Origin: Escherichia coli
GTDB taxonomy: Bacteria > Pseudomonadota > Gammaproteobacteria > Enterobacterales > Enterobacteriaceae
Assembly: GCF_046105845.1 (NCBI RefSeq)
Contig: NZ_CP151004.1
DNA: 64,000 bases
Direction: 5' to 3' (one strand)
Made by a program: the position numbers and the translations under genes. Under the pieces are notes generated by a model, which had not been told where the DNA came from, searched no databases, and was given only the letters and a program-made list of their open reading frames with translations. Positions within the stretch are counted from its first letter, which is position 1; the number at the start of each line of letters is the position of its first letter. Below are positions 34,820 through 63,195 of this stretch, piece after piece.

Positions 34820-36406
34820 TTAATGCTCGCGGGTCTGGTGGAACTGAACGTCCGGATAACGTTCCTGCGCCAGGCGCAGGTTTACCATGCTGGTAGCGAT
34901 GTAAGCGAGGTTATCGCCGCCATCAAGCGCCAGTTGGCTTTCGTTCTTACGCTTGAACTCTTCGAATTTCTTCGCGTCCGCACATTCTACCCAGCGGGCA
35001 GTGGCAACGTTGACTGACTCATACACTGCTTCAACGTTGTATTCGCTCTTCAGGCGCGCTACCACCACATCAAACTGCAGCACACCAACCGCGCCAACGA
35101 TCAGATCGTTGTTGGAGATCGGACGGAACACCTGCACCGCGCCCTCTTCGGAAAGCTGTACCAGCCCTTTAAGCAGCTGTTTTTGCTTCAGCGGATCTTT
35201 CAGGCGGATACGACGGAACAGTTCTGGCGCGAAGTTCGGAATACCGGTGAACTTCATCATCTCACCCTGGGTAAAGGTGTCGCCGATCTGAATGGTGCCG
35301 TGGTTGTGCAGACCAAGGATATCGCCAGGATATGCTTCTTCAACGTGCGAACGGTCACCCGCCATAAAGGTCAGCGCGTCGGAGATCACCACATCTTTCG
35401 CAGTACGCACCTGGCGCAGCTTCATGCCTTTTTCATATTTACCGGACACCACACGCATAAACGCCACGCGGTCGCGGTGTTTCGGGTCCATGTTGGCCTG
35501 AATTTTAAATACGAAGCCGGTAAATTTGTCTTCGCTCGCCTCTACGGTACGGGTATCAGTCTGACGCGGCATCGGCGCAGGGGCCCACTCCACCAGGCCA
35601 TCCAGCATATGATCGACGCCGAAGTTACCCAGCGCAGTACCAAAGAATACCGGGGTGATTTCGCCCGCAAGGAACAATTCTTTGTCGAACTCGTTAGACG
35701 CGCCTTTCACCAGCTCCAGTTCATCACGCAGCTGCTGCGCCAGATCTTCACCAACCGCAGCGTCGAGATCCGGGTTATTCAGCCCTTTAACAATGCGGAC
35801 TTCCTGAATGGTGTGGCCTTTACCACTCTGATAAAGATAGGTTTCATCTTTATAAAGGTGATAAACGCCTTTAAACAGCTTGCCGCAGCCAATCGGCCAG
35901 GTGATCGGTGCACAGCCGATTTTCAGCTCGTTCTCAACTTCATCGAGCAGCTCCATCGGGTCGCGGATATCACGGTCAAGTTTGTTCATAAAGGTGAGGA
36001 TCGGCGTGTCGCGCAGACGGGTAACTTCCATCAGCTTACGGGTACGATCTTCAACACCTTTTGCGGCGTCGATAACCATCAGGCAGCAGTCCACCGCCGT
36101 CAGGGTACGATAGGTATCTTCCGAGAAGTCTTCGTGCCCCGGGGTGTCGAGCAGGTTAACCAGGCAATCGTGATACGGAAACTGCATCACAGACGTGGTA
36201 ATGGAGATCCCACGCTGCTTTTCCATCTCCATCCAGTCCGACTTAGCGTGCTGGTTGGAACCACGGCCTTTTACTGTACCGGCGGTCTGAATGGCCTGTC
36301 CGAACAGCAGCACCTTCTCGGTGATGGTAGTCTTACCGGCGTCCGGGTGAGAAATAATTGCAAAGGTTCTTCTTTTCGCTACCTCTGCGGCCAAAAGGCT
36401 TGTCAT
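34820..36406 (-). CDS. prfC: Peptide chain release factor 3 (RF3); first about 9 codons differ from the K-12 N-terminus I recall
   Basis: ORF track 34820..36433; start at [27 protein letters not shown]; rest of the protein matches E. coli RF3. Confidence 0.9.
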
Positions 36407-36560
36407 AATTGTTGTCTCTTTGATTATGTACAATCATATGTACAAAGAAAAATTCATGCCGCTGATTGTACATTTTGGAGGTATCAGAGCATAGCAGAAC
36501 ATGATCAGTAGGTGTATTTGTAGCCAAAGAACATTTGTACATGCAGCAATCTTTGTTCTA

Positions 36561-36610
36561 TTGACACTGTTTATTCATACAGTTAAAAATAACACTGTAT
36601 ACAAACACAG
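36561..36610 (+). promoter_or_regulatory. Promoter with two LexA (SOS) boxes upstream of the dinI-like gene
   Basis: -35 ttgaca at 36561-36566; CTGT-N8-ACAG boxes ctgtttattcatacag (36567-36582) and ctgtatacaaacacag (36595-36610). Confidence 0.65.
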
Positions 36611-36625
36611 TGTAGAGGGATTTTT

Positions 36626-36874
36626 ATGCGTATTGAGATCTGCATAGCCAAAGAGAAAATGACTAAAATGCCAAACGGTGCTGTGGATGCGTTAAAGGAA
36701 GAATTAACTCGACGCATCAGTAAGCGTTATGACGATGTAGAGGTGATCGTAAAAGCCACCAGCAACGATGGCCTTTCTGTTACGCGCACCGCCGATAAAG
36801 ATTCAGCTAAAACTTTTGTTCAGGAAACTCTGAAAGATACCTGGGAGTCTGCTGACGAGTGGTTTGTTCACTAA
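36626..36874 (+). CDS. DinI-family SOS-response protein (prophage-borne), 82 aa
   Basis: ORF track; [11 protein letters not shown]...[11 protein letters not shown] closely resembles DinI (MRIEVTIAKT...TWESADDWFV). Confidence 0.8.
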
Positions 36875-37300
36875 TTAACACGTAAAATCGGTAACGGCTG
36901 GAAATCATTCAATACTCGCACTATCGGAAGTTCACCAGCCAACCGCAGCACGTTCTTGCATACGACGTGTCTGCGGTTTTTCAACCATTCAGATACAGCA
37001 CTCTCATAACATTCATTCTTCCGCATTAAAGTATATATGACCATATCACCTTAATATTTTTCTTCTTCAGATAAAAATTGTTATCTATGTATACTTTTAA
37101 ACCGAATCCGTGTAGAGTCTCTACCTAAGTTAGTTCGCAGCTCCCCCTTCAGTTTGCGCCATTAACCTCCTGACTTTTGCCGCTATCTGTAAGCATTCCT
37201 GTATACCTGAAACTACAGGGTTCATCTACGAACTTTAAGAACACCCAGGATAAAAATTGTCAACTATATTATATATAACACCATACTAATTCGAGGCTAT

Positions 37301-37414
37301 ATGAACAGCATACTGATAATCACTTCACTACTTATCATATTCAGCATTTTTGGTCATGCTCTAATAAAATTAGGGATTGGCATATCCAATAACCCGGACA
37401 AAACAGATGTATAA
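37301..37414 (+). CDS. Candidate 37-aa hydrophobic peptide ([37 protein letters not shown]) with GAGG ribosome-binding site
   Basis: Manual ORF in AT-rich region; single predicted TM helix; below ORF track cutoff; coding status unproven. Confidence 0.3.
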
Positions 37415-37482
37415 GTCAACATATCCTGAATCAGACATACAATATTGCAATGAAAACCAATAATATTTTAAGGAATATCTTC

Positions 37483-37716
37483 ATGAAATCAAAAGACACC
37501 CTAAAGTGGTTCCCTGCGCAGCTTCCTGAAGTCAGAATTATCCTGGGAGATGCTGTCGTGGAAGTAGCAAAACAGGGAAGACCTATCAATACCAGAACAT
37601 TGCTTGATTACATTGAAGGAAACATAAAGAAAAAGTCATGGCTGGATAACAAAGAATTATTACAAACAGCGATATCAGTTCTTAAAGACAACCAAAATTT
37701 AAATGGTAAAGTGTAA
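37483..37716 (+). CDS. YnaE/YdfK-like small prophage protein (about 77 aa)
   Basis: ORF track 37450..37716; start at MKSKDTLKWFPAQLPEV; resembles Rac/Qin ynaE/ydfK as I recall them, located next to the pin-like gene as in those prophages. Confidence 0.5.
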   Translation: MKSKDTLKWFPAQLPEVRIILGDAVVEVAKQGRPINTRTLLDYIEGNIKKKSWLDNKELLQTAISVLKDNQNLNGKV

Positions 37717-38095
37717 TACCCCCCCTGAAAAATAATTTTTCAATGCATTAAAAAAATATCAACAACTACGTTATTCCGCAACAACCTACTTTTTTTACCA
37801 TTTTTCCACTTTAACAACATTTTGCTCCACTTTTCCACGACCAAACAACTTAAAATCTGGTTGAAATAACATACAACACTATTATTCGTCTTCCTCGAGT
37901 CCGCCCGGAGTTCGAAAAACAAACCGAGTTAAAGCCATTTTTCAAAAAATCGATTTTTGGTTACACCAAAATTACGGGACTGCATCCGAATTCGTTTATT
38001 TTCGAACGTATACATACAAATATGTACAATAATAAGCGAAATAATTTTTGGATATGCATTATGATATGTACACCAATTTCGTATAGAGTCTCACT

Positions 38096-38686
38096 ATGTC
38101 TCGAATTTTTGCTTACTGTCGGATATCAACGCTGGATCAGACCACCGAAAATCAACGCCGGGAAATCGAAAGTGCAGGTTTTAAAATCAAACCTCAGCAA
38201 ATAATCGAAGAACACATTAGCGGCTCAGCAGCAACCAGTGAGCGTCCTGGTTTTAACCGGTTGCTTGCTCGCCTGAAATGTGGTGATCAATTGATTGTGA
38301 CAAAACTGGATCGCCTTGGTTGTAATGCAATGGATATCAGGAAAACAGTGGAACAACTGACCGAAACAGGTATCAGAGTGCATTGCTTAGCATTGGGGGG
38401 CATTGACCTGACCAGTCCAACAGGAAAAATGATGATGCAAGTAATTTCAGCAGTCGCTGAATTTGAACGAGACCTTTTACTTGAACGCACTCATTCCGGG
38501 ATAGTAAGAGCCCGGGGCGCAGGGAAACGTTTTGGTCGACCACCTGTGTTAAATGAAGAACAGAAACAGGTGGTATTCGAACGGATTAAGTCAGGTGTAA
38601 GTATAAGTGCCATTGCCCGGGAATTCAAAACCTCGCGGCAAACCATTTTAAGAGCCAAAGCAAAACTTCAGACACCTGACATATAA
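38096..38686 (+). CDS. Serine recombinase / DNA invertase of the PinR/PinQ type (196 aa)
   Basis: ORF track; catalytic-Ser N-terminus [17 protein letters not shown] motif, C-terminal HTH; adjacent to tail-fibre genes. Confidence 0.85.
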
Positions 38687-38783
38687 AAAATAATCTTGGT
38701 GTGAGATGCTTTACGTCTTCCAAGCCCCCTTCCTTGCCGTAAATGGAAAGATACATCTAATTATAGAATTTATATGTTTTACC

Positions 38784-39359
38784 CTACGGCAGTGCTGGCC
38801 ATTCAATATCCTGTGCAGTTGACGTATCAACACGGTTCAGCAATACCCGATACTTTTTCCATGCTTCCAGCAACGAGATTTCTTCCTCCGTTGCAATTTC
38901 CAGATCTGCAGCATCCTGAAGCGGCGCAATATGCTCACTGGCTACCTGCATCAGGCTGTTTTTTGTTTCTTCCGCCTCCCGGATCCGGAACAGTTTTTCT
39001 GCTTCTGCATCTTTCACCCAGGCTGTGCCGTTCCACTTCTGAAACTCCCCTTCCGGCGATAACCAGGTAACATTTTCCGGTAACGGACCGAGTTCAGAAA
39101 TAAATAACGCGTCCCCTGACGCTACGTCATAAACCGTTTTACCCCGATGGTCTTCAACGAGATGCCACGATGCCTCATCACTGTTGAAAACAGCCACGAA
39201 GCCTGCCGGAATATCTGGCGGTGCAATATCGGTACTGTTTGCTGGCAGACCTGTATGAGGCGGAATATATGCGTCACCTTCACCAATAAATTCATTAGTT
39301 CCGGCCAGCAGATTATAAATTTTTATGGTCCGTGGTTGTTCACTCATTCTGAATGCCAT
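38784..39359 (-). CDS. Tail fibre assembly protein (Tfa), 191 aa
   Basis: ORF track; immediately downstream of side tail fibre gene; Tfa-like size. Confidence 0.8.
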
Positions 39360-42300
39360 TATGCAAGCCTCACAATGTAGTTAAATGCGATGTTTTTGAC
39401 GGTGTTTTCCGCGTTACCAGCAGCGTTAACGGTGATAGTGTGTCCATGTGAGCCAATCGCAACAGAGTGCGTATGAGCACCAATACCGACAGTATGTGCG
39501 TGAGCACCTGCAGATGCGGCTGTGCCGCTAACACTATGAGTGTGCGCTCCTGCAGCACTTGTATTCACACTGGCCGCAGACACTACCTTATGTACTGACC
39601 CATTTTGTGACCACTGGCTGACTGCTGATGCGCCTGTGACACTATGAGTATGGTTTCCGGCACTTGCGGCTGTACCGCTCACACTGTGCGTATGCGCCCC
39701 GGTGTTATTCGTGGATTTAGTGCCGTAATCAAACGACGATGTGGTTTTCGTCCCCAAATCCGTACTGGATGCGCTGGCGCTGTGGGTGTGCGATTTAATG
39801 CCGTCCTGTTCCTGAGACAATACGGCCCGACCACTGGCAGGTTTGCCCTTAATCGTCCAGCTACGCATATCAGGGATCACGCCTGACGGATAAGCGGCTG
39901 CAAGTTTCGGGTATGCAGATTTGTCAAAAGTCTGCCCCTGCATCAGGGCATAACCAGACGGAACGGTATCTGATGGCCACGGGATTGGTGCGCCGACTGG
40001 GTAGCTTTCTGGTGGAAGATTTTTCGAGGTATAAACTTCTGCCCAGTCTTCCTCAAAACCATAGCCATCTCTTGAGGAACGGTAGAACAGACCTCCATTT
40101 CTGTAATGCGCCTTCATCTGCAGGGTCCGGCAACTTCCGACTCCGGTATAGAAGTTAACCAGAATATAGCTGTCGCCAGAGCGGGTGACATTGTAAGCGC
40201 CTGATTCGGCATTCCATGGAACGCCCCCATCCGCATCGGCATACGTATCCGTTGCTCTTCTGGCAAAAGCAGCCACATGCGCGGCGGTTAAAGTAATATC
40301 TTTGGAACCATCAAACTCAACACCAGAAACCCGTCTTGGCGTTTGCAGCTTTGTTGCTGTTAATGCATTACCGTTCAGACTTGCGGACAGTTTGGTTCCA
40401 ATAACCAGCTCGCCGGTTGCGTTATCAATAGCAAACGGTCTTAATGTATTCCAGCCACCATAAACATCACCTTGATTGGTAAGCAGCAGGTAAGTTTTAG
40501 CGCCATCATTACGCCATAATGCACCATACTCCCCACCTATCATTCGAATCTGATTACCACCACGCGCTACAATTTCGTCTGTGGCAAAAAGTTTTTTGCA
40601 CGACAAGTTATCGTTAACGATTAACGAATGAGACTCATAAAAACCACGCCCACTCTTAAAATCAAGGATAACGTCCGCCGCGATACATTCAGTCGCTGGA
40701 TTTGTTGCCCCAAACTTATAGGTCGTATCATTAACAACGAGATCAGCACCAGGTGCGGATATTGACAGGCCATCTTCGATAAACGCAAAAACAGGGAAAG
40801 CAGCGCCATCAACATAGAACACAGAGCGCAAATCATCGCCCTTATTACTCATCATTATTGAGTGGATGGCTCGTTCATTGTTTTGATATTGCCAGAACAT
40901 TCCATAAGCATAACGCCCCCTGTCAGTCCAGCCACCAGGCATAACAAATCCGTTAAACTCGCAGTTATTCATCGGATCGCCTGCGGTTCGCGTTGCCGTG
41001 GTGATAATGACCCTTGATGCCAGTTCGCTTACTGAGCCAGCAGAACGCATAACAACAACAGGGTAATATTTTCCAGATGTTGCACCTGCAGGAGCGTTAA
41101 CCCGCACATAACGCATACCACGCTTATCAGCAAAGTCTGTTTTACTGACCGCGTTAATGTTGTTCAGGAAGCGTCCCTTATCGGGTATATCAGCGCCGTT
41201 CTGGTCTTTCTGCAGACGTTTCTCTGCATTGTCATAGGCTGATTTTACTGCCTTTGGCGTTGCCGCCAGCGTTTCAGACGTACTGTTGGTCGCACTGCTG
41301 AGCTGTACTATCCCCTTTTTCGTCGTGCTCGCATCCTCAAGCGCCACGGCGGATGCAATATCCTCTGCCCGTTTTGCCGCTGTCTCAGCGCGCGTTGCTG
41401 CAGATTCCGCCGTACTTTTGCTCTGAGCTGCTGCCGTCGCACTACCAGCAGCCTCTGTCGCCTTCGTGGATGCCGTCGTGGCGCTGCCCTTCGCTGCTGA
41501 CGCCTGTCTGGTCGCCTCATCTTTTGAAGCAGACGCCGATGAGGCCGATGACGCCGCCGAACTGGCGGACGATGCCGCTGCCGTTTTTGAGGATTCTGCA
41601 CGGGTTTCCGACGCTTTCGCGTTCGTTTCGGATGTCTTCGCTGCGGAAGCTGACCTCGCTGCTGCCGTGGCCTGCTCAGTGGCTTCGCCAGCCTTCGTTG
41701 TGGCTGTTGAAGCGGATGATGCGGCGCTTTCTGCCGATTTTCCGGCGGCGGTGGCACTGACTGAGGCCTGCCCGGCACTTGTTGACGCGGCACTGGCAGA
41801 CGACGCAGCCGCTGTTTTTGAGCCTGCCGCAGCTGAGGCGCTCTGTCCCGCTGCCGTCTCAGAAGACCTGGCGTTCGTCTCGGACGTTTTTGCCGCCTTC
41901 GCGGAATTTCCTGCCGCCGTTGCCGAGGAAGCTGCGCTGCTGGCGCTCGAGGCTGCGTTCGTTTCTGATGATTTTGCCGCCTCTTTTGAAGCCGACGCAT
42001 CCCGTGCTGAAGTGGCTGCTTCTGACGCTTTCGTGGTCGCGGTGGATGCAGAAGTGGCTGCTGATTGTTGTGACGCTGCCGCATTCGTTTCTGACGTTTT
42101 CGCCGCACCGGCACTGGTAGCCGCCGCGCTTTTTGAGGACTCTGCAGCGGCAGCACTTTTTGATGCTTCAGTGGCCTTTGCTGATGCCGTTCCTGCGCTG
42201 GAAGACGCTGACTGAGCCGACGACGCGGCCTGTCCGGCTGACGTGCTGGCTGCGCGTGCTGAGCCTGCAGCATCAGTCGCATGGGTTGCCGCCTCACGGG

Positions 42301-42718
42301 CTGATGTGCTGGCATTGCTGGCTGACTTCTTCGCGGCTGCTGTGTTCTGTGCCACCGCGGACGCGTTACGCGCCACCTCTTCCACCATCAGTTCAAAACG
42401 TCGCAGTGCCTCCGGACGGGTATCATCCTCCGTCATGGCACCGAGAAAATCATTCAGCGTACCGGGTTGAGAATCTTCATACACGGTGATGGTCCCGGCA
42501 TGTGACGGCGGGAATCCCTCCACCAACAGAATAACGCTGTACTGACCGTACTCAACGTCCATACTGTAACGCCCGGCTTCATCCGGATTTTCTGAGGCCA
42601 GCGTGTTCACCACCACAGTGGTACTGTTACGTTTTGCTTTCAGCTGGATTGTGCAGTTCTGTACCGGTTTTCCTGTGCCGTCTTTCAGTACACCTGAAAT
42701 CTTTACTGCCATATTCAC
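39359..42718 (-). CDS. Lambdoid side tail fibre protein (Stf-like), 1119 aa with long Ala/Ser/Thr-rich low-complexity region
   Basis: ORF track; N-terminus [17 protein letters not shown] typical of Stf; StfR-like length. Confidence 0.8.
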
Positions 42719-42728
42719 CCCACAAAAA

Positions 42729-42750
42729 AGCCCGCCTGAACCGGCGGGCT
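42729..42750 (-). terminator. Rho-independent terminator downstream of lom
   Basis: aagcccgcctgaaccggcgggct hairpin. Confidence 0.5.
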
Positions 42751-42776
42751 GTCATAACACTGTGTTACCTGGCTAA

Positions 42777-43376
42777 TCAGAATTTATAACCGACACCCAC
42801 GATGAAACCGTCAGTGCGCCAGTCACCACTGCCGGAGCCTTCATAAGCAATATCAATGGCCACGGATTCGGTCGGGTTAAACTGCACGCCAGCCCCCCAC
42901 GCCAGAGACGTGTTGCTGTGGCGACCGTCATCACTTCCGGTCAGCACATCGTGCGTTTTCCCCTTGTTGTCAGTTACGCGGAGATAATCCCCGGAGAAAG
43001 TCGACACACGGCTGTAAGCCACACCCGCCATCGCATACGCGCTGAACCATTCATTCACGCGTACAGACGGCCCCGCCATCACGCTGAACCAGCGGTTACG
43101 CACTGAATCTTCATGCCAGCGGGTATCGCTGTAACGGGTAAGCTGGCGATTCTTGTCTCCTGCATAGCTGAATGACGTCACCAGCCCCAGTGTGTCCGTA
43201 AACTCATAACGGTATTTCACGTTAATCCCGTTCAGATCATCGCTGCCGGAAACGTTCGTCGAGGCATGAAGATAGCCCGCGCTCAGCGTGGACTGATGTT
43301 CAGACGCCCATGCAGGCGCACCGGATACGGCCAGACAGATGGCTGCGGACAAAATGGTGGCATAAAGTTTACGCAT
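42777..43376 (-). CDS. Lom/Ail-family outer membrane beta-barrel protein (199 aa)
   Basis: ORF track; signal peptide, C-terminal ...VGVGYKF beta-barrel terminus; lambda lom position between J and stf. Confidence 0.8.
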
Positions 43377-43442
43377 AATTACCTCTCGCTTTTCTGCAAT
43401 AAAAAAGGCGTCATTTCTGACGCCCGTTATGGGTTATAAAAT

Positions 43443-44948
<1,506 letters not shown>

Positions 44949-47232
44949 GTTGCTGGTTTTTCTGGCGAAGACTCAGTTGTACCTGATATCGCTGCCGCTG
45001 CTGATCACCCATACCCACCGTGGCGATATCCAGGTCATGTTGCTGACGCTGAGCGCGCTCTTCTTCAGCCAGTTGACTGGTCAGCTGAATTGTTTTTTTC
45101 TTCAGATCGTTGAGTGCCGTCTGTTTCTGAAGCTCCTGCTGTTTTACATCCAGCAGCATCAGTGCCTGAATCAGTTCATCTTTACGGGCCAGCACACTCT
45201 TTTCATCTGTCGTCAGTTTTTTCCCGTCCAGATCGCTGATGCGCTGCTGCAGAGCCAGAAGCTGTTTATGCGCTTCTGTCATCTTTTCAGTGGCAATGCC
45301 TGCTGACTGTCTTGCAGCAGCAATCTGTCCTTCCACCTGTGCCTGTTGCTGACTGTACTGCAGCAATAACCGGGTGGCCTCATCATTACGGGTTTCGCGT
45401 GTTTTTTTCTTACCGGATGCCAGGGCTTTCTCGTAACGTTCATTTTCACGTTGTATCGCTGCATCCCTGACAGCCTGATCGGCGTACTGCATGGAATTAA
45501 TACGCGCAATTTCACGCTGATGTCGTGCTGCTTCCGATTCATTCATCCGGTTCAGTGCAGCATTTTCAGCATTACGTCGTTTCTGTTGCTCCTGATAATT
45601 CCGCTCTGCCTGCTCTTTTGCATCCTGCAAATCCTTCTGGCGTTTTTTCTCCTGAAGATCGTTAAGACGCTGCTGATCGTATTCAACCTGAGAAGATGAT
45701 GCCGTCCAGGGGAGTCTTTTCGCCCGCGACACTTTCTCCTGTAAAGCGGCAATCTGTTCATCCAGCGAGTCTTCACGACCAATATTCATGGCCGCATCCC
45801 AGAAACGACTCCACAAATCAGACAGATACTTCAGCGTACTGCCAAGCGCATTGAGGTTATTATCAATATCCGCAGTACGCCGACCGGTTTCCTCTGCCAG
45901 TGCAGACATGGCTATCCGTGCAGCATCACTGGACCGTCCCTGATCCCCAAGGACACGTATCTGCTCAAGCTGAGTGGCAGTAAGAAAATGCAGCTCATTG
46001 TCCAGAGCCTTCGCGGCATTTACAGGATCATCCTTCAGCCGCTTAAACTGACTTATGGTATCGCTGACCGACTGGCCAACCGATCGCTCCATCTGTGCGG
46101 CAGCTCTCGCCACCATACCGATATCGTTTCCACGAAATGCGCCACTCCCCACCACCTGAGCCAGCGCACCGGCTGCAGCATGTTGCGTGATACCATTCCC
46201 GGAAATAGCACGACTGAGCGTCCACAGCTGCCCGGCAGTGACTCCGGCATAATGCCCCGTCAGCGACAACTGGCGGTTAAATTCTTCCCCCTCCTTCTGA
46301 CCATCATACCAGGCTTTACCCAGACCATAGACGGCCGCGGCAATACCGCCAATAACCCCGCCCAGCATCATGCCTTTCGGTGACATCAGTGTGTCTATCC
46401 ATCCGGCACGGTTAGCCAGCGTTATCCCGGATCCCCTCAGCGCACCTAAATTGCCGCGAACCAGTTCACCTATCAGAACGCCTATCTCCTGGCGGGCCGC
46501 TGCACTTTTCAGCCCCAGCGAATGCGTGGCTTTTCCTGCCTGCTCCATTTTGCGGATATACACTTCTGCAGCACTGCTTACCCCCAGCTGGGCAGCCTTA
46601 GCACGAAGCAACTCAGAAGAAGAAAGATTCTGGCGGGTTGCCTGCTCTTTAAGCTGACGGATAAACGCCACTTTCTGTCGGGTAGCCTCTGCCTCAGCCT
46701 GCGTAAGAACACGGGTTTTCGCCGTAACCTCAGAAATCAGCGCCAGATAATCCTGCTGACCAATCCCGCCACTGTTTCTGGCCTGTCGGATCTGCTGCTG
46801 AATACGCTGTAATTCCTGCAGCCCCGCACTGGCCTGTTTCACACTGTCAATCTGACGATAAAACGCGGCAGCCGCTTTATCCTGAGCCTCCGCCAGAGCC
46901 ATGGCCTGCGCCTGTTCCTCACGCATTTTCTGGCTCAGTGCCTCCATACGCTGGCGGGTTTGCTCCACCTCGCGGGCCATGCGTTCATGAGCCTGTGCGC
47001 TCTTCTCCACCGTCTGCGCATGGACGGATGCGGCTGTTGCAGCCGAAGAAGCCGCCTGCATTGTCTGCCGGGCGGCCTGAGTCTGACGCTCCATAAAACG
47101 CTGCATACGGGCAGAAGACCGTTCTGCATCGCTGGCTGCACCATTCAGAAGGTTTTTGATACGGGGAATTTCATTTTTAAACTCTGCCGCATCAATCCCC
47201 AAATCAATGACCAGGTTGGCTATCTGGTCCAT
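44949..47232 (-). pseudogene. Lambda H-like tail tape-measure gene, 3' end truncated by the IS insertion
   Basis: ORF track 44944..47262; reading frame continues to the IS boundary and stops 1-2 codons inside the IS; coiled-coil rich, overlaps gpT end. Confidence 0.7.
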
Positions 47233-47533
47233 AACGCACACCTCCGGAAATACCTTCCCCAAGATGCATCAGTTCTTCGTCCGTTCGCTCCGGTATCCCG
47301 TTCTCTTCCGGTAAAAGGCTGAAATCAGCCACCGCAGCATCACTGCTACCGGACACCATTCTCACGATCAATGCCTTCAGCGAGGCAAACTGCGCATCCA
47401 TCCACACATCACTGAAGCTCTGCATCCGGAAATAATCGCCCCACTCACCAAGCTCAGTGGCCGACATTTCCGACAGCATCCGCCGCCAGTCTGCCCGTCG
47501 GAACTCCCGGGCAAGCCGCATGACAAACTGCAT
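47204..47533 (-). CDS. Tail assembly chaperone T portion (expressed as G-T fusion by -1 frameshift)
   Basis: ORF track; -1 frame relative to G, open from within the last codons of G; candidate slippery GGAAAAG (plus-strand 47548-47554). Confidence 0.6.
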   Translation of the reverse strand: MQFVMRLAREFRRADWRRMLSEMSATELGEWGDYFRMQSFSDVWMDAQFASLKALIVRMVSGSSDAAVADFSLLPEENGIPERTDEELMHLGEGISGGVRYGPDSQPGH

Positions 47534-47541
47534 TTCCCGCG

Positions 47542-47928
47542 TCAGGACTTTTCCGGCGTCAGCGCCTCATGCTCATCATCCCCGGCATTATCAATGGTCC
47601 CCATACCGCTCAGCGACAGAACCATCTCCGCCCCCGCACCCAGGGCATCATACGACCATGTTGTAATAACGGATGCGCAAAGCGTCTCTACATCCTTAGA
47701 CTGATCCGCATTCCACAGTGAGCGGGAAACCAGCCAGGCATTGATATCCATCCCCATCCGCAGAAAAGCAATCTGTCGTTCAGCCTCCGGCAGTTCTCCC
47801 TCTTCGGCATCAAACTTTGCCGTTCGCTGCTGAACAAACGCCAGATATTCAATTCTCTGCAGCCCGGACAGCTCACTGAGCACCACGGACTGCTTTTCAT
47901 AATTAAACGTGCCCTGTTTCAGAAACAT
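47542..47928 (-). CDS. Tail assembly chaperone G (lambda gpG-like)
   Basis: ORF track 47542..47970; start at MFLKQGTF resembles lambda G MFLKTESF. Confidence 0.7.
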   Translation of the reverse strand: MFLKQGTFNYEKQSVVLSELSGLQRIEYLAFVQQRTAKFDAEEGELPEAERQIAFLRMGMDINAWLVSRSLWNADQSKDVETLCASVITTWSYDALGAGAEMVLSLSGMGTIDNAGDDEHEALTPEKS

Positions 47929-47988
47929 CATGTTCTCCACCTGCAAAAAAGCCCCGGATAATCGGGGCAAATGATGAGTATCGTCCTG

Positions 47989-48732
47989 TTAACCTGCGGC
48001 GCTGACAGCCACCGTAGCCACTGCCACAAAATCGCCGTCAGAAGTCATGCCCACAATGCTGACACTGCCCTGCTTCACGCCTTTCACCGTGGCCACAAGC
48101 CCGTTCAGGGTCACCGTGGCAGTCTGTGGATCTGTCGAATGCACACTGATCGCTTTGTCACTGGCTCCGTCAGGTTTTACTGTAAAGGTCAGCGTGGTGG
48201 TTGCTCCCACTTTTACACTGGCAGATGCCGGTGCCACCGTCAGCCCGGTAACGCCCACGGTTTCAGTGCCTTCTTCTGCCAGATACGGACGCCCCACACC
48301 GCTGATTTTCACTGTGCGGGTCATCACGTCTTTTGAGGCAATGGTTTTACCCAGTGAACTCAGCCAGCCACGGAAAACATCAACAGTACCGTTGGGATAT
48401 TTGATACGAAACGCGCAGACTTCACCGGAGTCGAACAACTGAACCAGTTTTTTCTGCCCGCTGTCACCCGGACGCCAGGCCAGCGTCGCCGAAGTATCAC
48501 CGACGGATTTCTGCCCCTGGGTTGTCGTTTTCCAGTCTGCATCTTCATCATCGAGATAAGTGTCATCTTCTGCATCAGCGGTCATTTCGCCAGGTTGCAG
48601 ATCCTTCACCATCGCAAGACGCAGCCAGTCAGTGTCCGACAAAGGGTTCGCAAACGCATCGCCGTTGCCGGTATACATCCAGAACGTCGTCCCCGCACCT
48701 TTCGTCTTTGCCAGTGGATTTGGTGTGGTCAT
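47989..48732 (-). CDS. Major tail protein V-like with C-terminal Ig-like domain
   Basis: ORF track 47989..48807; start at MTTPNPLAKTKGAGTTFWMY; about 247 aa. Confidence 0.8.
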   Translation of the reverse strand: MTTPNPLAKTKGAGTTFWMYTGNGDAFANPLSDTDWLRLAMVKDLQPGEMTADAEDDTYLDDEDADWKTTTQGQKSVGDTSATLAWRPGDSGQKKLVQLFDSGEVCAFRIKYPNGTVDVFRGWLSSLGKTIASKDVMTRTVKISGVGRPYLAEEGTETVGVTGLTVAPASASVKVGATTTLTFTVKPDGASDKAISVHSTDPQTATVTLNGLVATVKGVKQGSVSIVGMTSDGDFVAVATVAVSAAG

Positions 48733-48742
48733 TACCACCTCC

Positions 48743-49144
48743 TTAATTCGTGTACGTGATCTGGTACGTGATTTCCGCCATCGCCCAGGTGGCCATCTCA
48801 TTATCACGTTGATAGTTAAAACCGAGTGGGATCAGGGTGTCGATGAGTCCGGAAAGTGCCGGTACATCATTCAGGGCAGGGAAAATGGTGCTCTCCATCC
48901 ACATATCCAGCTCTGAATCCGGTGCCTGTGCCCGGATGAAGACGGCAATATGCAGAACAGCCTGCCAGTCATCTTCATCCGTCATTTTTCCGGTGTACTG
49001 AGCATCACTCAGCCACACCGCCACGGCAGGCAGTTCCTGCGCATCAATAAATGCCGGAAGCCCGTCAAAAAACGTGGCGCTGTCTCCACACTGTTCCCGA
49101 AGGCGTGCCAGTACGGCCTGGCGGATTTGTGTATGTCGGTTCAT
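48743..49144 (-). CDS. Minor tail protein U-like (tail terminator)
   Basis: ORF track 48743..49156; resembles lambda U (..ATFFDG..PAVAV...ITY..). Confidence 0.7.
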   Translation of the reverse strand: MNRHTQIRQAVLARLREQCGDSATFFDGLPAFIDAQELPAVAVWLSDAQYTGKMTDEDDWQAVLHIAVFIRAQAPDSELDMWMESTIFPALNDVPALSGLIDTLIPLGFNYQRDNEMATWAMAEITYQITYTN

Positions 49145-49719
49145 CGGGTCAGCCATAACCTCAGTTGTTGTTTCAGTGCATACCCCAGCTGTTTCGGCAT
49201 TTCCGCAGCAATGATGTGGTCACGGGCATCTTCAAATGCCTGTGTCAGCGGTCCGGACAGCGGGATTTTCACCACATCAATGGGGTAACGATTTTTGCCA
49301 TCAATACGTCGCATCACATGCCAGCGACCATTCGCCAGTTGCTGAATAAACGCATCCCGGAAAAGATATTTACCCACCTTCAGCACACTGCCACGGTACT
49401 GCAGTTTTCCACCACGCCGGGCCAGTCTGACCCGGGCTGTCCCCAGCTTAATGGCGGGCAGATTGCCTCGGTTAACGCGGATCCTGGCCGTCATTTTTCC
49501 TGACGGACTGGCTTTAAACACCCGGACACGCTGACGTACCAGTTTCAGGGGGATCCCTTTCACCTGGTTATCTCCCGCAACGGTATTCCCGGCAACCTGC
49601 CGGGTGGCAACCGAGACCGCTTTCTGTGCCACACGGTTTATCGCCCATGCGCTGGCCTGTGGCACCATACGGGTATCAAGGCTGTTCAGATTGCGGATGG
49701 CATTCTCAAGCCCCTTCAT
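49141..49719 (-). CDS. Tail completion protein Z-like (192 aa)
   Basis: ORF track; position and size as lambda Z. Confidence 0.65.
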   Translation of the reverse strand: MKGLENAIRNLNSLDTRMVPQASAWAINRVAQKAVSVATRQVAGNTVAGDNQVKGIPLKLVRQRVRVFKASPSGKMTARIRVNRGNLPAIKLGTARVRLARRGGKLQYRGSVLKVGKYLFRDAFIQQLANGRWHVMRRIDGKNRYPIDVVKIPLSGPLTQAFEDARDHIIAAEMPKQLGYALKQQLRLWLTR

Positions 49720-49730
49720 CCCACACCTCT

Positions 49731-50006
49731 TTACTCAATAAAGATCATTGGCTTACCGTTAAAGCGTTCATGCCGTGTGACCGTCCATTGTTGTCCGTCA
49801 TAAACAACGCGATCCCCGCGCCGTGGGCGGTATCCCGAAGAAAACACCACCAGAGAGACCGCAGGTCCGGACAGAGCATTCAGCTCTGCCAGTGTTTCTC
49901 CCGGGATCACAGTCATATCGACATCATTAATCGAGGCTGTCTTTCCCATCTTTCTGACCGTGATCGCATCCATACGCGCTGCCAGCCGGGAAAAGGGATC
50001 AGACAT
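49731..50006 (-). CDS. Head-tail joining protein (gpFII-like), 91 aa
   Basis: ORF track; position between head genes and Z; assignment by synteny. Confidence 0.45.
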   Translation of the reverse strand: MSDPFSRLAARMDAITVRKMGKTASINDVDMTVIPGETLAELNALSGPAVSLVVFSSGYRPRRGDRVVYDGQQWTVTRHERFNGKPMIFIE

Positions 50007-50322
50007 TGAGTTTTACCGGCACTTCTTCTGCACTGGTTCCGGCATCTGCCCAGACAACCCCGACCAGCGGATCAGAGCCACTGTTAGTCAGCTGAACTTT
50101 TCCTGACTTCATATAAACCTTCTTACCCGTTTTCATGTCATCCGTTTTCAGCTTAGGCAGCATAAACACACCTTCGGTTATGCCGTCGCCTGTTTCTCCC
50201 TGTGGAATATCGGTCAGCGCCACCGCAAAAACATCACCCACCTGCACCAGATCTCCGCTGCTGATGGCTGCACTGGCAACAATCGCCACCGTTTTTCCTT
50301 CTTCTACAAAATTCTTTGCCAT
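49999..50322 (-). CDS. DUF2190-family small head protein (possible decoration/stabilisation protein)
   Basis: ORF track 49999..50367; start at MAKNFVEEGK; follows capsid gene. Confidence 0.45.
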   Translation of the reverse strand: MAKNFVEEGKTVAIVASAAISSGDLVQVGDVFAVALTDIPQGETGDGITEGVFMLPKLKTDDMKTGKKVYMKSGKVQLTNSGSDPLVGVVWADAGTSAEEVPVKLNV

Positions 50323-50408
50323 AACTGTCTCCGCACAGCCCCGTTCAGGGGCTGATTTCAGGTACAAAAAAAGCCCTTACGGGCCATCAGAGTTGTTGTC
50401 TGCGACGT

Positions 50409-52367
50409 TTACGCCGTACATTTCACCAGGCCGCGGTGATCAACTGGCGCAACACCAGCGTCAATACGTACTTTCGTTGTCACGCCATCCACACTGAAGC
50501 CCTCCATCTGATCAATATATGGCGTATCCACACCGTTGAGATAAGCCACTTCAATCGTATCGGAGCCTTTGGACGCAGCCAGGTAGAAGGTGGTCTGGCT
50601 GTTATCATCAAGACGAGGCTCTGCAATAACGGTCGCAAAATCTTTCACCGGGTTAATAATACCGGCGTTAATGTCAGCCCCCTTGACACTTGAGGAGCGA
50701 ATGACCTGGTTAGCAACAGACTCCATCGCCGTCGGTACCAGTACGAACGCAGGACGAATATTCAGATGACGCTCACCCTCTTTCTGAACGCGCATCAACT
50801 GGCGGGCTTTATCCAGCGATGCCACGTCCATTGCCGCGCTCTCCAGTACGTTTGCATGTTTCGCTTTATCGAACAGACTTACATTATCTGTGGAGATTTT
50901 CGGGTTAGACGTCAGAATGGCATAAACCAGATCGGCAATAGTGGATTTCGCCGCACGGCCCAGCTTCATCGGGACATCGGTCAGCATATTCAGATCATCA
51001 TTGATAATGGCCTGACGGGTGATACTGAACAGCTCGCCATAGGTCGCCAGTGCAATAGTGGCCTGTTTATCTCCGGTGGTGACGTATTTATATTCTGCCC
51101 CTTCACGCACCTGACGCAGAGCACTGAAGCCCCCCATACCCACACGATGGGCAATTTTAAAATCAGACAACTGACCTTTCCGCGTCCACTGTTCATAGGT
51201 TTCAGGGGCATCTTCCCAGCCCTGCAGAATGGCTTTGTTCGCAACATCCAGCAGAATATTACCGAAGTCAGACGTACTGTGTGTGAACGCCGCACCGACC
51301 ATCTGCATCGGGTTATAACTGGAAACACCAATACCACGTTCAGTCAGTGACATACGGGCATATTCACGCAGGGTCATCCCGTTGTAGACATTATCACGTT
51401 CGGTTTTTTCAAACCCGGCGCGCGCCATCAGCGCCTGGCGGATCCCGTCCCCCACAAAATTACCGTTACCGGCATAAATATGAGCCGGGGTATTTTTATT
51501 GGATGGCGTGGACTCGCGCCCCATCTCGTTCAACAGCTTTTCGCGGGCCTGCTCCAGCGAACATTCAGGATCGGCAAGACACTGAGCCTGCAGCGACTGA
51601 TAACGCCCACCAAACATGGCAAACAGATCATTAATACCGTTTACACGCGCTTTTTGCTCTGCCAGGACCTGCGCACGGATGCTGTTTTCATCCACCACGG
51701 GTGCTGCTGCCTGCACTGGCGTCCGGGAGGCTGCAGGTCCATCATCCTGTACGCGTGGAGCACTGTTGCGTGGCGGAGTAATCATATTTCGAATGGATTC
51801 CGGCATCTTTTTAAATTCCTCTGTACGTTTTGACTGAATACATGCCATTGCCTTAATGGCTGGTGTCACCTGATCAGCAAATCCCTGTGCCAGACATTCG
51901 GCACCGGACATCCAGGTCTCATCCGCCAGCATGGCAGCAATTTCATCGGTGGTTTTCCCGGTTTTCTGTGCATAAGCGGGTAACAGAACCGCCTCAACTT
52001 TATCGAGCAGGTCGGCATAGGTGCGCATGTCCTCCGCATCACCGCCCGTAAAGCCAAATGGTTTATGAATCATCATGAAGGAGTTTTCCGGCATAATGAC
52101 CGGGTTTCCCACCATCGCAATGACCGACGCCATTGACGCCGCCACACCGTCGACATAAACGGTAATGGACGCACCATGTGTTTTCAGTGCATTAAAAATG
52201 GCGATGCCTTCAAAGACATCGCCACCCGGTGAATTAATATGGAGATTAATGTGGGTGATATCGCCCAGTGCATTCAGATCACTGATAAACTGCTTCGCCG
52301 TAACACCCCAGAAACCAATCTCGTCATAAATATAAATATCCGCGTCACTCTGGTGACCTGCCTGCAT
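50409..52367 (-). CDS. ClpP-like head maturation protease fused to major capsid protein
   Basis: ORF track 50409..52628; start set after the portal stop at MQAGHQSDADIYIYDEIGFWG; ClpP-like N-terminus and capsid C-terminus. Confidence 0.75.
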   Translation of the reverse strand: MQAGHQSDADIYIYDEIGFWGVTAKQFISDLNALGDITHINLHINSPGGDVFEGIAIFNALKTHGASITVYVDGVAASMASVIAMVGNPVIMPENSFMMIHKPFGFTGGDAEDMRTYADLLDKVEAVLLPAYAQKTGKTTDEIAAMLADETWMSGAECLAQGFADQVTPAIKAMACIQSKRTEEFKKMPESIRNMITPPRNSAPRVQDDGPAASRTPVQAAAPVVDENSIRAQVLAEQKARVNGINDLFAMFGGRYQSLQAQCLADPECSLEQAREKLLNEMGRESTPSNKNTPAHIYAGNGNFVGDGIRQALMARAGFEKTERDNVYNGMTLREYARMSLTERGIGVSSYNPMQMVGAAFTHSTSDFGNILLDVANKAILQGWEDAPETYEQWTRKGQLSDFKIAHRVGMGGFSALRQVREGAEYKYVTTGDKQATIALATYGELFSITRQAIINDDLNMLTDVPMKLGRAAKSTIADLVYAILTSNPKISTDNVSLFDKAKHANVLESAAMDVASLDKARQLMRVQKEGERHLNIRPAFVLVPTAMESVANQVIRSSSVKGADINAGIINPVKDFATVIAEPRLDDNSQTTFYLAASKGSDTIEVAYLNGVDTPYIDQMEGFSVDGVTTKVRIDAGVAPVDHRGLVKCTA

Positions 52368-52380
52368 CCTGAACCAGGAA

Positions 52381-53889
52381 TTATTCTTCGGACTGGTCGT
52401 CGGTGTGCTGCGGCTCCTGTCGTTTCGTTGCGGCACTGCTGCCTCCTTTATCACTGGCCGGATCGGTATCAAATACCAGATCCAGCTTGCGGTTTTCATC
52501 AATTTCGGCCTTGCGCCGACGTTTGACATCATCCGGATTACGACCACCTGCACGTACCCAGTCTGATTCTGTCGCCGCTCCACCACGAATCTGAATTTTC
52601 CAGGCCTCAGCCTCCTTAACAGGGTCAATCCACGGCATCACCGGTCCGGAATACACCGCGGTATACAGTGAAGAACGATCAAGATCGCGGGGTAGCCTGA
52701 TAACACCGGATGCCACAGCCTGTTTCAGCCAGGCACGATACATCGGGCGGGTGACGGCACCAATAAACCAGTCCTGCAGGATCAGGTAGCCATCAGTGGA
52801 TTCAACCAGCTCCTGACGCTGGGCGCTGTAAGTGCCGTTATAGTTGCGCGCTGTACTGGAAAAACTCAGACGACTGCCCGCCGCCACGGCACGCAACTGA
52901 CCATTACGAAAAGTTTCAAGATTAGGATTGGGGCGATCCGACTTCACCATTCCGATTTCTTCGCCGGGTTTCAGATCGTCGTAAATAATGCCTGGCTGAA
53001 TGGTAAGCTCGCGTTCCTTATCCTTGCTGCCATTACCATCCGGTTCATAGCTCTGCCCGTCGCCTTTCCGGATGTACATCCCCAGAGCAGCGGCGATCCT
53101 TGCTGCAGTCAGCTCAGAATCTTCATACTCTTTCAGGGCACTGAGGCGGATCAGCACACCGGACAACAAAGACGTCCCGCGCATCTGGTGCAGACGGCGA
53201 ACAAATTTAAGATGCAGCATTCGCTCTGCATCCACTTCTTTGGTTTCCATCTGCCGTCCGGATACGGGACGGCTTTTATACACCAGATATTTTTCGGGAC
53301 GCCCCCAGTCATCAACAAACACGCCCTGATTCAGCCTGTTGCTCTCATCACTGGTCATGGGAATAAAGTCCGGCTCGAGCGCCTCCAGCCAGAAATGAAC
53401 ACCGGCAGAAGGCGTCAGGCTGTTTATGCGCCCGGAAACCATCTGGGCAAACACCTCACCATCGCGCAGCCAGGTACGCAACATCAGACGTTCCAGCATC
53501 GGACGGGTAAACTGCCCGGTGACTTCCGGACTGACAGACCATTCACTCCATCGGGTGCGTATCTCCGCTGCCAGATCACGGGCAATGGCCCCATTGCGTA
53601 ATACCGGATGTGGCTCGACAATAATCCCGTTTTTCCCCACCACCCGTTCTTCCAGCTTGTCAAATACACCAATGACCAGATCGTGGTTGTTATCAAGGTA
53701 ACGGGCCTGCTCACGTAACGACACGGCCCCGTACTGGCTTAACTGGTCGGCAGTTCGGTTTTCCCGCCGGGCTTTGTGTGTCCGCGTCGTTTTTACGGCC
53801 TCATAAGCCTGGATCACCGCACGGGAACGCAGCCTTGCCGCTTTCCATCCTGGTGAAAAAACGCCAATCACATCATCAAGAATTGCCAT
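52381..53889 (-). CDS. Portal protein (lambda B-like)
   Basis: ORF track 52381..53961; start set at MAILDDVIGVF overlapping the W stop. Confidence 0.8.
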   Translation of the reverse strand: MAILDDVIGVFSPGWKAARLRSRAVIQAYEAVKTTRTHKARRENRTADQLSQYGAVSLREQARYLDNNHDLVIGVFDKLEERVVGKNGIIVEPHPVLRNGAIARDLAAEIRTRWSEWSVSPEVTGQFTRPMLERLMLRTWLRDGEVFAQMVSGRINSLTPSAGVHFWLEALEPDFIPMTSDESNRLNQGVFVDDWGRPEKYLVYKSRPVSGRQMETKEVDAERMLHLKFVRRLHQMRGTSLLSGVLIRLSALKEYEDSELTAARIAAALGMYIRKGDGQSYEPDGNGSKDKERELTIQPGIIYDDLKPGEEIGMVKSDRPNPNLETFRNGQLRAVAAGSRLSFSSTARNYNGTYSAQRQELVESTDGYLILQDWFIGAVTRPMYRAWLKQAVASGVIRLPRDLDRSSLYTAVYSGPVMPWIDPVKEAEAWKIQIRGGAATESDWVRAGGRNPDDVKRRRKAEIDENRKLDLVFDTDPASDKGGSSAATKRQEPQHTDDQSEE

Positions 53890-54107
53890 CAGAACCTCGC
53901 AAGCCGGTACCCGGGATGCCCCCGTCGTCGTGTAATCAGAGCCGCAAGGCGGCGCTCCCACTCCTGCCGTCCCTGCCGGATCTCAGATAAGTTTTCCATG
54001 GTCATCTGCTGACCATTAAAGGTGACGGATTTTCCGTCCAGCACCGCCATTTCAGCTTCCGTATAACGCTGAATCATGGCTTCGATATCATTCTGGTTCA
54101 TAACCAT
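53889..54107 (-). CDS. Head-tail joining protein W-like (72 aa)
   Basis: ORF track; between terminase large subunit and portal. Confidence 0.6.
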   Translation of the reverse strand: MVMNQNDIEAMIQRYTEAEMAVLDGKSVTFNGQQMTMENLSEIRQGRQEWERRLAALITRRRGHPGYRLARF

Positions 54108-56200: not shown

Positions 56201-56691
56201 TACTCCTCCTGCTGTAATTCCTCCTCATCATCCGCACCTGCTTCGGTCACCCGCAGGGCTATCTGATCGCGCAGATCATCAATAATGGACTGAACACGGC
56301 TCACAGCGGCAGGCTGCAGGCCGCAGTCACGTTCCAGAATATCCGGTAATGTCTCCAGCACCTGCACGACCGCTTTTGCCCAGATGGCAAACTCCCGTCT
56401 GACATCACTGGCCGGAATGAGTTGTGCCGTTTCCTGTTCGAACTTAAGACGCTCACGTTCAGACTGATACCAGGCTTTGCGTTCATGTGGATCCATTTCG
56501 CCCTCAGCAACCGGCGGTGGTAACCCCATAAATTCAGTCAGAATATCGGTCAACCGGTATAGCTTGAGTTTGTCATGTCCACCAGCGGGACGAATGTTTT
56601 TCAGTCTTGCCACGACAGTCTGGCGGTGCAGACCAGATAAAGCCGCCAGTTGATTAATATTCAGCACCAGGTTTTTCAACTCATGATCCAT
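56200..56691 (-). CDS. Terminase small subunit (Nu1-like, N-terminal HTH)
   Basis: ORF track; directly upstream of terminase large subunit with overlapping stop/start. Confidence 0.7.
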   Translation of the reverse strand: MDHELKNLVLNINQLAALSGLHRQTVVARLKNIRPAGGHDKLKLYRLTDILTEFMGLPPPVAEGEMDPHERKAWYQSERERLKFEQETAQLIPASDVRREFAIWAKAVVQVLETLPDILERDCGLQPAAVSRVQSIIDDLRDQIALRVTEAGADDEEELQQEE

Positions 56692-56860
56692 ATTTCCTCC
56701 GGAGAGCTTTAAACATGCATCGTGCGAACAACTTTAAGAAAACGCGTTCGATGTCGAACAAAAAACACTCAATTCGACATACAAAAAACAAACAACCATT
56801 AATAATCAATAAGATGCAAAGATGATGGTGGCCGATAAGAATGCAAAAACTAGCCTTTTT

Positions 56861-56880
56861 CCGCGACGCTCCCGCCCCGT
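56861..56880 (-). other. Candidate cos site (cohesive-end cleavage region), about 186 bp upstream of the Nu1-like start
   Basis: Minus strand reads GGGCGGGAGCGTCGCGG, similar to the lambda left end GGGCGGCGACCTCGCGG as I recall it; spacing to Nu1 like lambda. Confidence 0.5.
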
Positions 56881-57244
56881 GGCAGGGCCCCCCCCCAGGG
56901 AGGACCCGACAGCCTGACAACCGTGACGAGCATCTGAAACAGAGCTTTACATAATGGCGTGGGGATAATTCAGAAGGACATCACAGCATGCCCACACAAA
57001 TTAGTGTGAGTGTCCTGTTTCTTACTACGCGCAGGACTGACGAGCATGAGGGGAAAATACGCGAACCGAAATGCCTTATCTTCAGAAATGCAGCCGGCAT
57101 CCGAACTGGACGATATTGTAAATTCACCTAAATACGAGGCATTGCTGTAGTTGAATTGCAGTACTGTATTAGCCTGACAGTGACAGAATACGATATTGAC
57201 TCTGTCACTTGTGAAATGGTCAGAATGGTTAGCAGTTATGGTGA

Positions 57245-57451
57245 TCAGTCAACCACCAGGGAATAATCCTTCGTATTCTTATCGTGCTTTACTAACGCGG
57301 CCTCAATTGCCCTGAATGCTTCCAGAGATACTTGATGTTCTATACATGCAATTACAACATCCGGGTAACCCATCGAAATGGTGCTATTAAGCATAGTTTT
57401 TACACGAACCTGCTCCTGGGAGGGGGCATCAGTGTATTGATCTTTATGCAT
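57245..57451 (-). CDS. Hypothetical 68-aa protein between P2-like ogr and the lambdoid cos region
   Basis: ORF track only; no recognised family. Confidence 0.35.
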
Positions 57452-63170: not shown

Positions 63171-63195
63171 TTTGCTGTCCTGTCAATTGGGTTCT

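Follow-up and report, generated by a model that had tools for sequence, protein, structure and literature searches.

A lambdoid prophage junction within prfC of Escherichia coli, with TGTACA hexamers as likely arm-type sites for the phage integrase

The stretch of DNA analysed here, hereafter the window, comprises 64,000 nucleotides (nt) of the Escherichia coli contig NZ_CP151004.1 (assembly GCF_046105845.1) and contains prfC, the gene for release factor RF3, adjoining lambdoid phage DNA with tail, head and terminase genes. We found that a lambdoid prophage belonging to the cdtI/2H10/Ayreon/PhiR63_1 group is inserted in the 5' part of prfC, and that window positions 36345-36569 are its right junction, attR. 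The strand exchange took place by site-specific recombination within a core of 14 base pairs (bp), ATTATTTCTCACCC, and all the DNA upstream of this core is phage DNA, including the first 16 codons of the gene, its ribosome-binding site and its promoter region. The phage arm of this junction carries four TGTACA hexamers, and the explanation that best accounts for the observations as a whole, judged from sequence and by analogy, is that this is a prfC attR of a lambdoid phage in which the hexamers are likely to be arm-type binding sites of the integrase.

The prfC gene of the window is a hybrid, in which codons 1-16 are phage-derived and the remainder belongs to the host. In the translated open reading frame the first ATG is at 36406, on the minus strand. 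A previous reading of this DNA, made from the sequence alone, had remarked that RF3 begins here with MTSLLAAEV, unlike the K-12 protein, and had proposed a probable prophage attachment site overlapping the prfC start. Alignment with K-12 MG1655 confirms the different start, with the remaining 5' region identical: in the prfC direction, identity is complete from ATTATTTCTCACCC onward and breaks at 36358/36359. The crossover is located 48-61 nt inside the coding sequence, at codons 17-21 of hybrid prfC. The proposed attachment site at the 5' end of prfC therefore stands as a junction inside the gene, but it does not overlap the start codon, and the core falls just outside the range 36370-36625 that had been assigned to it. 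An identity with prophage-free strains continuing well upstream of the start codon, which had been named as evidence against an attachment site, was not found, since the identity ends within the gene at the position given above.

The nine codons that precede the core, encoding EVAKRRTFA, differ from K-12 at 8 of 27 nt and in six of the nine codons, and every change is synonymous, so that sequence identity is confined to the core. That the phage copy keeps these residues through synonymous codons only shows selection for a working fusion protein. Ahead of this segment there are seven or eight codons whose residues differ from those of K-12, and the non-coding DNA further upstream is unrelated. 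When 5,426 complete E. coli genomes were compared, the whole 401-bp junction was present in 654 (~12%), and it accounts for the RF3 N-terminal variant in these genomes; in nearly all the remaining ones the match is confined to window positions 36300-36386 (90.8% identity), which correspond to the host part plus the recoded stretch. The H30 sequence, considered as a variant junction, was rejected as such, as it is an empty site with polymorphisms. The exact 14-bp breakpoint is of use for prophage calling.

The distal end of such a prophage, where the same core had been expected, was inspected in E. coli O145 RM9872, the junction of which is 100% identical to that of the window. Here yjjG is followed by the native prfC start, the same 14-bp core (at 37996-38009 of the RM9872 locus, L003) and then a tyrosine integrase gene. 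The native prfC start is annotated as a 69-bp pseudogene, and the DNA between ATTATTTCTCACCC and the gene for the 407-residue integrase is unrelated. We take the 14-bp block as the core because it is the sole sequence common to both prophage ends. In the cdtI phage the two arm matches overlap by exactly 14 bp (26974-26987), and the joined arms of attP are found in the sequenced phages cdtI, 2H10 and Ayreon. Between window positions 36345 and 37000 the identity is 100% to PhiR63_1, 99.7% to 2H10 and 96.9% to cdtI. Upon integration, the phage version would displace the host 5' end of prfC, which would then survive as a stump next to the integrase at the opposite end of the prophage. Neither a second core nor a native prfC start was found within the 64-kb window, so that the far, integrase-bearing end of the prophage lies outside it. 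The prediction of a probable prophage attachment site at prfC has thus withstood the comparisons that had been proposed to challenge it.

The prfC attachment site and this kind of junction are already known, since prfC has been published as an insertion site for the cdtI phage, for Stx1a and Stx2c phages and for SXT/R391 elements, and the prophage end is identical to that of sequenced phages. The integrases of SXT and of the cdtI phage group together in a cluster with prfC as its insertion site (PMC8138268), the 5' end of this gene is where SXT/R391 elements integrate (PMC2791158), and Stx1a and Stx2c phages were described at prfC in the CC119 lineage of Shiga toxin-producing E. coli (PMC10132054). 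The locus is thereby one used by both Shiga-toxin and cytolethal distending toxin phages. The likeness to cdtI (AB285204/NC_009514), 2H10, Ayreon and PhiR63_1 includes the integrase (96-98% identity), the same 14-bp core, the supplied prfC 5' end and eight TGTACA sites, whereas the cargo and the neighbouring genes differ: cdtABC adjoins dinI in cdtI, and dinI is missing from Ayreon.

The four TGTACA hexamers are found exactly at the positions given by the sequence-only reading (36427, 36439, 36467 and 36536). They had been described as flanking the prfC start, which is not the case, as all four are upstream of it, between the ATG and the dinI-like gene that begins at 36626. The window contains eight copies of TGTACA, against 10.8 ± 3.1 expected, and four of them are in the prfC leader; since the total is not above expectation while four copies lie together, the signal is one of clustering and not of enrichment. 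Four copies within 115 bp have a Poisson probability of ~2e-9 per 115-bp stretch, or ~1e-6 after correction for the whole window, and when the mononucleotides of the 219-bp intergenic region were shuffled 200,000 times, no shuffle reached four copies. No other palindromic hexamer has four copies in 115 bp anywhere in the window.

In the intact attP of cdtI and Ayreon there are eight TGTACA sites, located at -183, -114, -86 and -74 on the P arm and at +178, +190, +199 and +229 from the core start on the other arm, the last of which ends 11 nt ahead of the integrase ATG. Seven of these eight read ATGTACAA or ATGTACAG in one orientation. On the P arm, homology between the window and both Ayreon and the IMG/VR contig L097 stops 10-30 bp past the fourth TGTACA, and the third TGTACA is kept in Pantoea stewartii (L118). 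The integrase of RM9872, analysed from that genome and not from the window, is P4-like, with 25% identity to P4 Int, and consists of an Arm-DNA-bind_3 domain (PF13356, residues 3-90, E-value 5e-16) followed by Phage_int_M and Phage_integrase domains. All the integrases examined in this family retain the arm-binding domain.

The P' arms were compared at eight attL junctions from eight genera, with integrases (Int) that are 51-100% identical, those of the relatives being at 85% in Salmonella, 65% in Xenorhabdus, 61% in Serratia, 55% in Erwinia, 53% in Alcanivorax, 52% in Pseudomonas and 51% in Shewanella. In all seven relatives outside E. coli, int is at the attL junction adjoining the native prfC start of the host. 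The P' arms, of 174-233 bp, are mutually unalignable, yet each has two to four sites of the form (T)GTACA(A) in the ~100 nt that directly precede int. Overall, GTACA occurs 26 times across the eight P' arms, E. coli included, versus once across the eight native prfC 5' regions (201 nt each). A search of viral contigs by integrase alignment returned only E. coli copies of 97-99% identity and no diverged relatives.

For the P arm, one genome per species was scanned for the pattern TGTACA-N(3-15)-TGTACA-N(50-80)-core, with both hexamers required. At least 120 species, from the gamma-, beta- and alphaproteobacteria, have the pair ahead of the prfC core. Among the 120 matches listed, the spacer is N6 in 117, though 3-15 nt were allowed, and the distance from the pair to the core is 68-70 nt in 110, though 50-80 nt were allowed. 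The ATG lies 51 nt from the core in 95 of the same matches, which include 74 distinct supplied N-termini. The repeated unit has the consensus (T)G-TGTACA-W-A, arranged in tandem with a 12-bp period and asymmetric flanks (88 distinct 5' modules), an arrangement that fits two protein monomers bound in the same orientation, and not a hairpin. Two further TGTACA copies are present in the window at 38023 and 38067 (ATGTACAAT and ATGTACACC), upstream of the serine invertase gene and 1.6 kb from the core; the copy at 38023 fits the extended arm-site consensus, but with ~10 copies expected per window both are probably due to chance.

The 5' modules that carry the motif behave as mobile DNA. In Acinetobacter species, the 150 nt before the core can be 97-100% identical while the following 600 nt of prfC are 74-87% identical, and the correlation between upstream and downstream identity is -0.18. 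Both in this group and in a second one, defined by the N-terminus MANQDFLNEINKRRTFA and comprising, among the matches listed, 26 species from unrelated genera, most between-species pairs show 0-4 mismatches in the 150-250 nt before the core and 24-45 mismatches in the 136 nt after it, the first of these at +14 to +26. Near-identity upstream together with divergence downstream indicates that the 5' modules move horizontally and break at the core, and modules with the motif are almost the same in species that differ by 16-26% in the body of prfC. These data are evidence that mobile elements routinely swap the prfC promoter and start. We considered whether the phage might have copied TGTACA from native prfC leaders, and rejected this on the grounds that the eight native leaders hold a single GTACA and that the modules are mobile.

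We favour integrase binding because the motif is present on both arms, the arm-binding domain is present in the integrase and the placement of the sites is conserved. In this model, the four P-arm hexamers would bind the N-terminal arm-binding domain of the phage integrase, as would the matching four on the P' arm before the int start, and GTGTACAAA is a candidate arm-site duplex for this domain. One Int molecule would grip an arm site and a core site together, as lambda Int does, and this bridging would bring attP, or attL and attR together, into the folded recombination complex. The key and most constrained element would be the proximal tandem pair, which has a 12-bp period and lies at a fixed distance from the core. 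As the P' sites overlap the translation start region of int, they could let Int repress its own gene, and the hexamer at -114 (TGTACAAT, then CAGCGGCATGAATTTTT) may double as -10 element and discriminator of the supplied prfC promoter. In addition, the repeat varies with the integrase lineage, with ATGGACAC in Klebsiella phage 5 and TTTATGGCCCCC in the IMG/VR loci L096/L110 at the same place as TGTACA. The sequence-only reading had offered three functions for the hexamers, and of these integrase binding is the best supported; prfC promoter elements are a weaker proposal, compatible with the former, and a role as repressor sites found no support.

Several points weigh against this assignment. 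The searched literature yielded no binding data for the hexamers, and queries on TGTACA with attP and on IntSXT binding sites gave nothing relevant. The choice of Int as the binder, and not of an excisionase or a host factor, is based on the presence of the motif on both arms and from the lambda analogy. In the window itself, P2-like DNA breaks into the prophage from ~57.7 kb onward, and the int end is outside the window. The TGTACA pair is part of the hybrid prfC leader, ~20 nt before the start codon, a position that leaves room for a role in prfC expression. Moreover, as the P-arm scan demanded two TGTACA, it shows the constraint on placement and the spread of the motif, and not the fraction of prfC elements that use it; a core-only scan of viral contigs, in which TGTACA was not demanded, gave 23 loci, and some elements at the same prfC core bear other repeats on both arms, such as TTTATGGCCCCC in L096/L110.

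Among the alternatives, the hexamers could act in the transcription or translation of the supplied prfC leader, as parts of a promoter or as an operator, instead of in recombination. All four are situated after the likely promoter and before the prfC start, most elements have the pair at a nearly fixed distance from the start codon (as reflected in the ATG-to-core distance reported above), and TGTACAAT overlaps a -10-like TACAAT followed by a GC-rich stretch, which resembles the native TAAAAT-AGCCGCAATTTTT in a by-eye comparison with the native E. coli upstream sequence TAAAATAGCCGCAATTTTT. However, the same motif clusters upstream of int on the other arm in eight genera, with no connection to prfC, it is absent from the eight native prfC leaders save for the one GTACA, and a consensus scan called no sigma-70-type promoter on the prfC strand between 36300 and 36950. 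We consider expression control in place of recombination rather unlikely, while the two roles could coexist. It is also conceivable, though improbable, that the hexamers bind an accessory recombination protein, either a phage excisionase or a host bending protein, and not the arm-binding domain of Int. Excisionases too bind tandem repeats in att arms, and small genes of the HTH_17 type adjoin int in the Serratia and Xenorhabdus relatives. In the lambda paradigm, however, excisionase sites are found on one arm only, whereas the motif is on both arms here; it also co-varies with the integrase lineage (ATGGACAC in the lepA type and TTTATGGCCCCC in another), and the arm-binding domain is kept by every integrase of the family.

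The two remaining explanations are a hairpin and chance. Since TGTACA is self-complementary, two adjacent copies 6 nt apart are able to pair, and the leader of the prfC mRNA, or single-stranded DNA, could fold into a hairpin through them. The leader has a folding energy of -9.2 kcal/mol (z = -1.07), which 30 of 200 shuffled sequences equal, and it is the sequence itself that is conserved, compensatory changes being absent and the tandem flanks asymmetric; in some relatives the repeats are direct copies of GTACAA, which are unable to pair. This makes a hairpin very improbable. That the cluster is a chance product of AT-rich intergenic DNA would agree with the lack of enrichment over the window, but it is refuted by the shuffles and the Poisson estimate, by the recurrence of the cluster at the same positions in more than 100 species and by the comparison with native leaders, and its probability is negligible.

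A broader proposal, in our view evenly balanced between true and false, is that TGTACA-N6-TGTACA at ~87/75 nt from the core, together with (T)GTACAA on the P' arm, forms an arm-site code shared by the whole cluster of prfC-targeting integrases. If true, this code would cover the clinically important SXT/R391 elements, cdtI and Stx phages and Acinetobacter islands, and the arm sites of an integrase family that is very widespread and takes in the SXT/R391 resistance elements would follow a simple sequence rule that is open to testing. No description of a shared arm-site code for prfC integrases was found in the searchable literature.

The SXT/R391 elements resemble the phage in having the same target codons, in supplying a replacement 5' end, MANQDFLNEINKRRTFA, and in having a TGTACA-N6-TGTACA pair at -87/-75. 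The MANQDFLNEINKRRTFA module adjoins genes for a LexA/cI-type (SetR-like) repressor and an FlhC-like (SetC-like) protein in the three loci checked, which matches the SetR/SetCD right end of SXT/R391. The attB of these elements was reportedly placed in the 5' end of prfC by Hochhut and Waldor in 1999. In contrast to the phage, SXT/R391 are conjugative elements, the related integrases retrieved here are only ~50% identical, int and xis of SXT are convergent and SetCD-dependent, and neither the supplied N-terminus nor the arms can otherwise be aligned with their phage counterparts. Phage structural genes are present in the element of the window, and no conjugative backbone with setR/setCD was found in it, SetR/SetC-like genes being found only by MANQDFLNEINKRRTFA-type ends in other species.

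Like the lambda Int/attP system, with its heterobivalent tyrosine integrase, the prfC phages have a short core, repeated sites unlike the core at 70-230 bp from it on each arm, and an integrase with a distinct arm-binding domain at its N-terminus. They differ from it in the integrase subfamily (P4-like, with Arm-DNA-bind_3), in the sequence of the sites, in having a target within a gene that needs a rebuilt 5' end, and in that binding is here deduced from comparison. Other prophages also integrate inside genes and supply a replacement end, as do e14 and phage 21 at icd and Gifsy-1 at lepA. As at prfC, part of the target gene is duplicated by the prophage and the gene stays functional, but at icd the 3' end is replaced, whereas the prfC prophage replaces the 5' end with its promoter and start codon. 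Gifsy-1 at lepA may be linked to the prfC integrase family, and a Gifsy-1 integrase segment matched as well. The closest non-prfC integrase in the phage collection is that of Klebsiella phage 5 LV-2017 (KY271399.1; L005 1-230), with 46% identity. The sequence F-S-I-I-A-H-I-D, encoded at the end of this prophage, belongs to the P-loop region of a GTPase of the lepA type, a site paralogous to FAIISHP of prfC in which 9 of 14 core bases match; at the place of TGTACA in the prfC phages, this phage has four repeats of ATGGACAC. From these sequences, related integrases appear to target the same codons in paralogous genes for translational GTPases.

Additional observations were made on the 5' modules of other genomes. 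The IMG/VR contig L096 has a TGTACA pair beside native-looking upstream DNA, which we infer from its sequence to be an SXT-type arm carrying a copy of the enterobacterial prfC promoter region. Part of the SXT-type arm, cagcgaaaatagcggccaatt...ggatttga, shows homology to the DNA upstream of native prfC in Xenorhabdus and Serratia, and this homology could offer a route to deletion of the element through homologous recombination. In Pectobacterium betavasculorum NCPPB 2795 (L122, 6200-8300), an SXT-type 5' module with the TGTACA pair and MATQDFLNEINKRRTFA adjoins the host genes radA-serB-ytjB and a hipBA pair; no second core was found there within 8 kb, and the module looks, by its sequence, like a scar left after loss of the element. 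Supplied prfC 5' ends, comprising promoter, leader and the first ~17 codons, could thus persist as scars, and many apparently native prfC starts of Proteobacteria could be mobile in origin. Elements with other repeats were also met in genes already modified: that of L096/L110 (IMG/VR 3300038708_000015) and that of Acinetobacter kyonggiensis (L130), which has two copies of TTTTTACACC on the arm at the same prfC core, are both inserted in a prfC whose 5' end is already of the TGTACA type, which suggests successive or tandem occupation of the site. In Budvicia aquatica (L140) and in a metagenome-assembled genome of Burkholderiales (L155), a second core-like sequence precedes the prfC core by 2.9 kb and 5.1 kb, respectively. 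Direct repeats of the core would here delimit very small elements or remnants, and no match to the cdtI-type integrase was found in either.

Table 1. Coordinates of the prfC junction and of the adjoining prophage features in the window.
Feature	Position	Strand	Basis and remarks
Hybrid prfC (RF3, 528 residues)	34820..36406	minus	Open reading frame and translation; K-12 alignment; prfC annotation at the identical RM9872 junction
attR, entire (core, supplied 5' end, P arm)	36345..36569	minus	Block common to phages that differ beyond it; window and cdtI with dinI, Ayreon without
attR common core, 14 bp, ATTATTTCTCACCC	36345..36358	minus	Shared by attR, attL and attP; codons I-I-S-H-P
Phage-supplied prfC 5' coding end	36359..36406	minus	K-12 alignment; same sequence in packaged phage genomes
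Core-proximal pair TGTACA-N6-TGTACA	36427..36444	minus	Hexamers at 36427 (-74 relative to the core) and 36439 (-86); putative arm-type sites of the integrase
Third TGTACA	36467..36472	minus	-114; reads TGTACAAT in the prfC direction; overlaps a -10-like TACAAT, then a GC-rich stretch
Fourth, distal TGTACA	36536..36541	minus	-183; near the outer limit of the conserved P arm
dinI-like gene, first prophage gene by attR	36626..36874	plus	NCBIfam NF007893, DNA damage-inducible protein I, E-value 3e-20; DinI-like in RM9872 and phages
Window part of the lambdoid prophage	36359..56716		dinI, ydfK-type genes, serine invertase, tail fibre, tail, head and terminase genes, to cos

The dinI-like gene (Table 1) has a sigma-70-type promoter, with TTGACA at 36561-36566, an 18-nt spacer and AAAAAT ending at 36590, and two matches to the LexA box (CTGT-N8-ACAG), at 36567-36582 and 36595-36610. 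The boxes point to an SOS-controlled gene directly beside attR and divergent from prfC. A terminator-like match at 36592-36613 was discarded, being merely the palindrome of the second LexA box.

Further into the prophage, window positions 39001-56716 are 97-98% identical to mEp460/Ayreon-type phages, and the same block is annotated in RM9872. The serine invertase gene (38096-38686) adjoins a tail-fibre assembly gene and a gene for a tail fibre of 1,119 residues with long Ala/Ser-rich repeats (38096-42718 in all), a layout that is usual for an invertible host-range segment. The cos site is at ~56.7 kb. The lambdoid homology ends at ~57697 and P2-like homology starts at 57679, the 19-bp overlap AGGTTTATGGGTATTTTGT resembling an att core; the P2-like DNA includes an ogr-like zinc-finger gene (57776-58027), followed by D, U and the tape measure gene. 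From the sequence, a P2-like prophage seems to be inserted inside the prfC lambdoid prophage, ~1 kb past cos, and no complete E. coli genome covers at least 80% of window positions 56001-64000. In RM9872, the prfC prophage is only ~30 kb long. At L003 38240-42955, an IS3-family element either takes the place of its early region or interrupts it, and abuts a truncated small-terminase (DUF1441) gene, which indicates that this copy of the prophage is defective.

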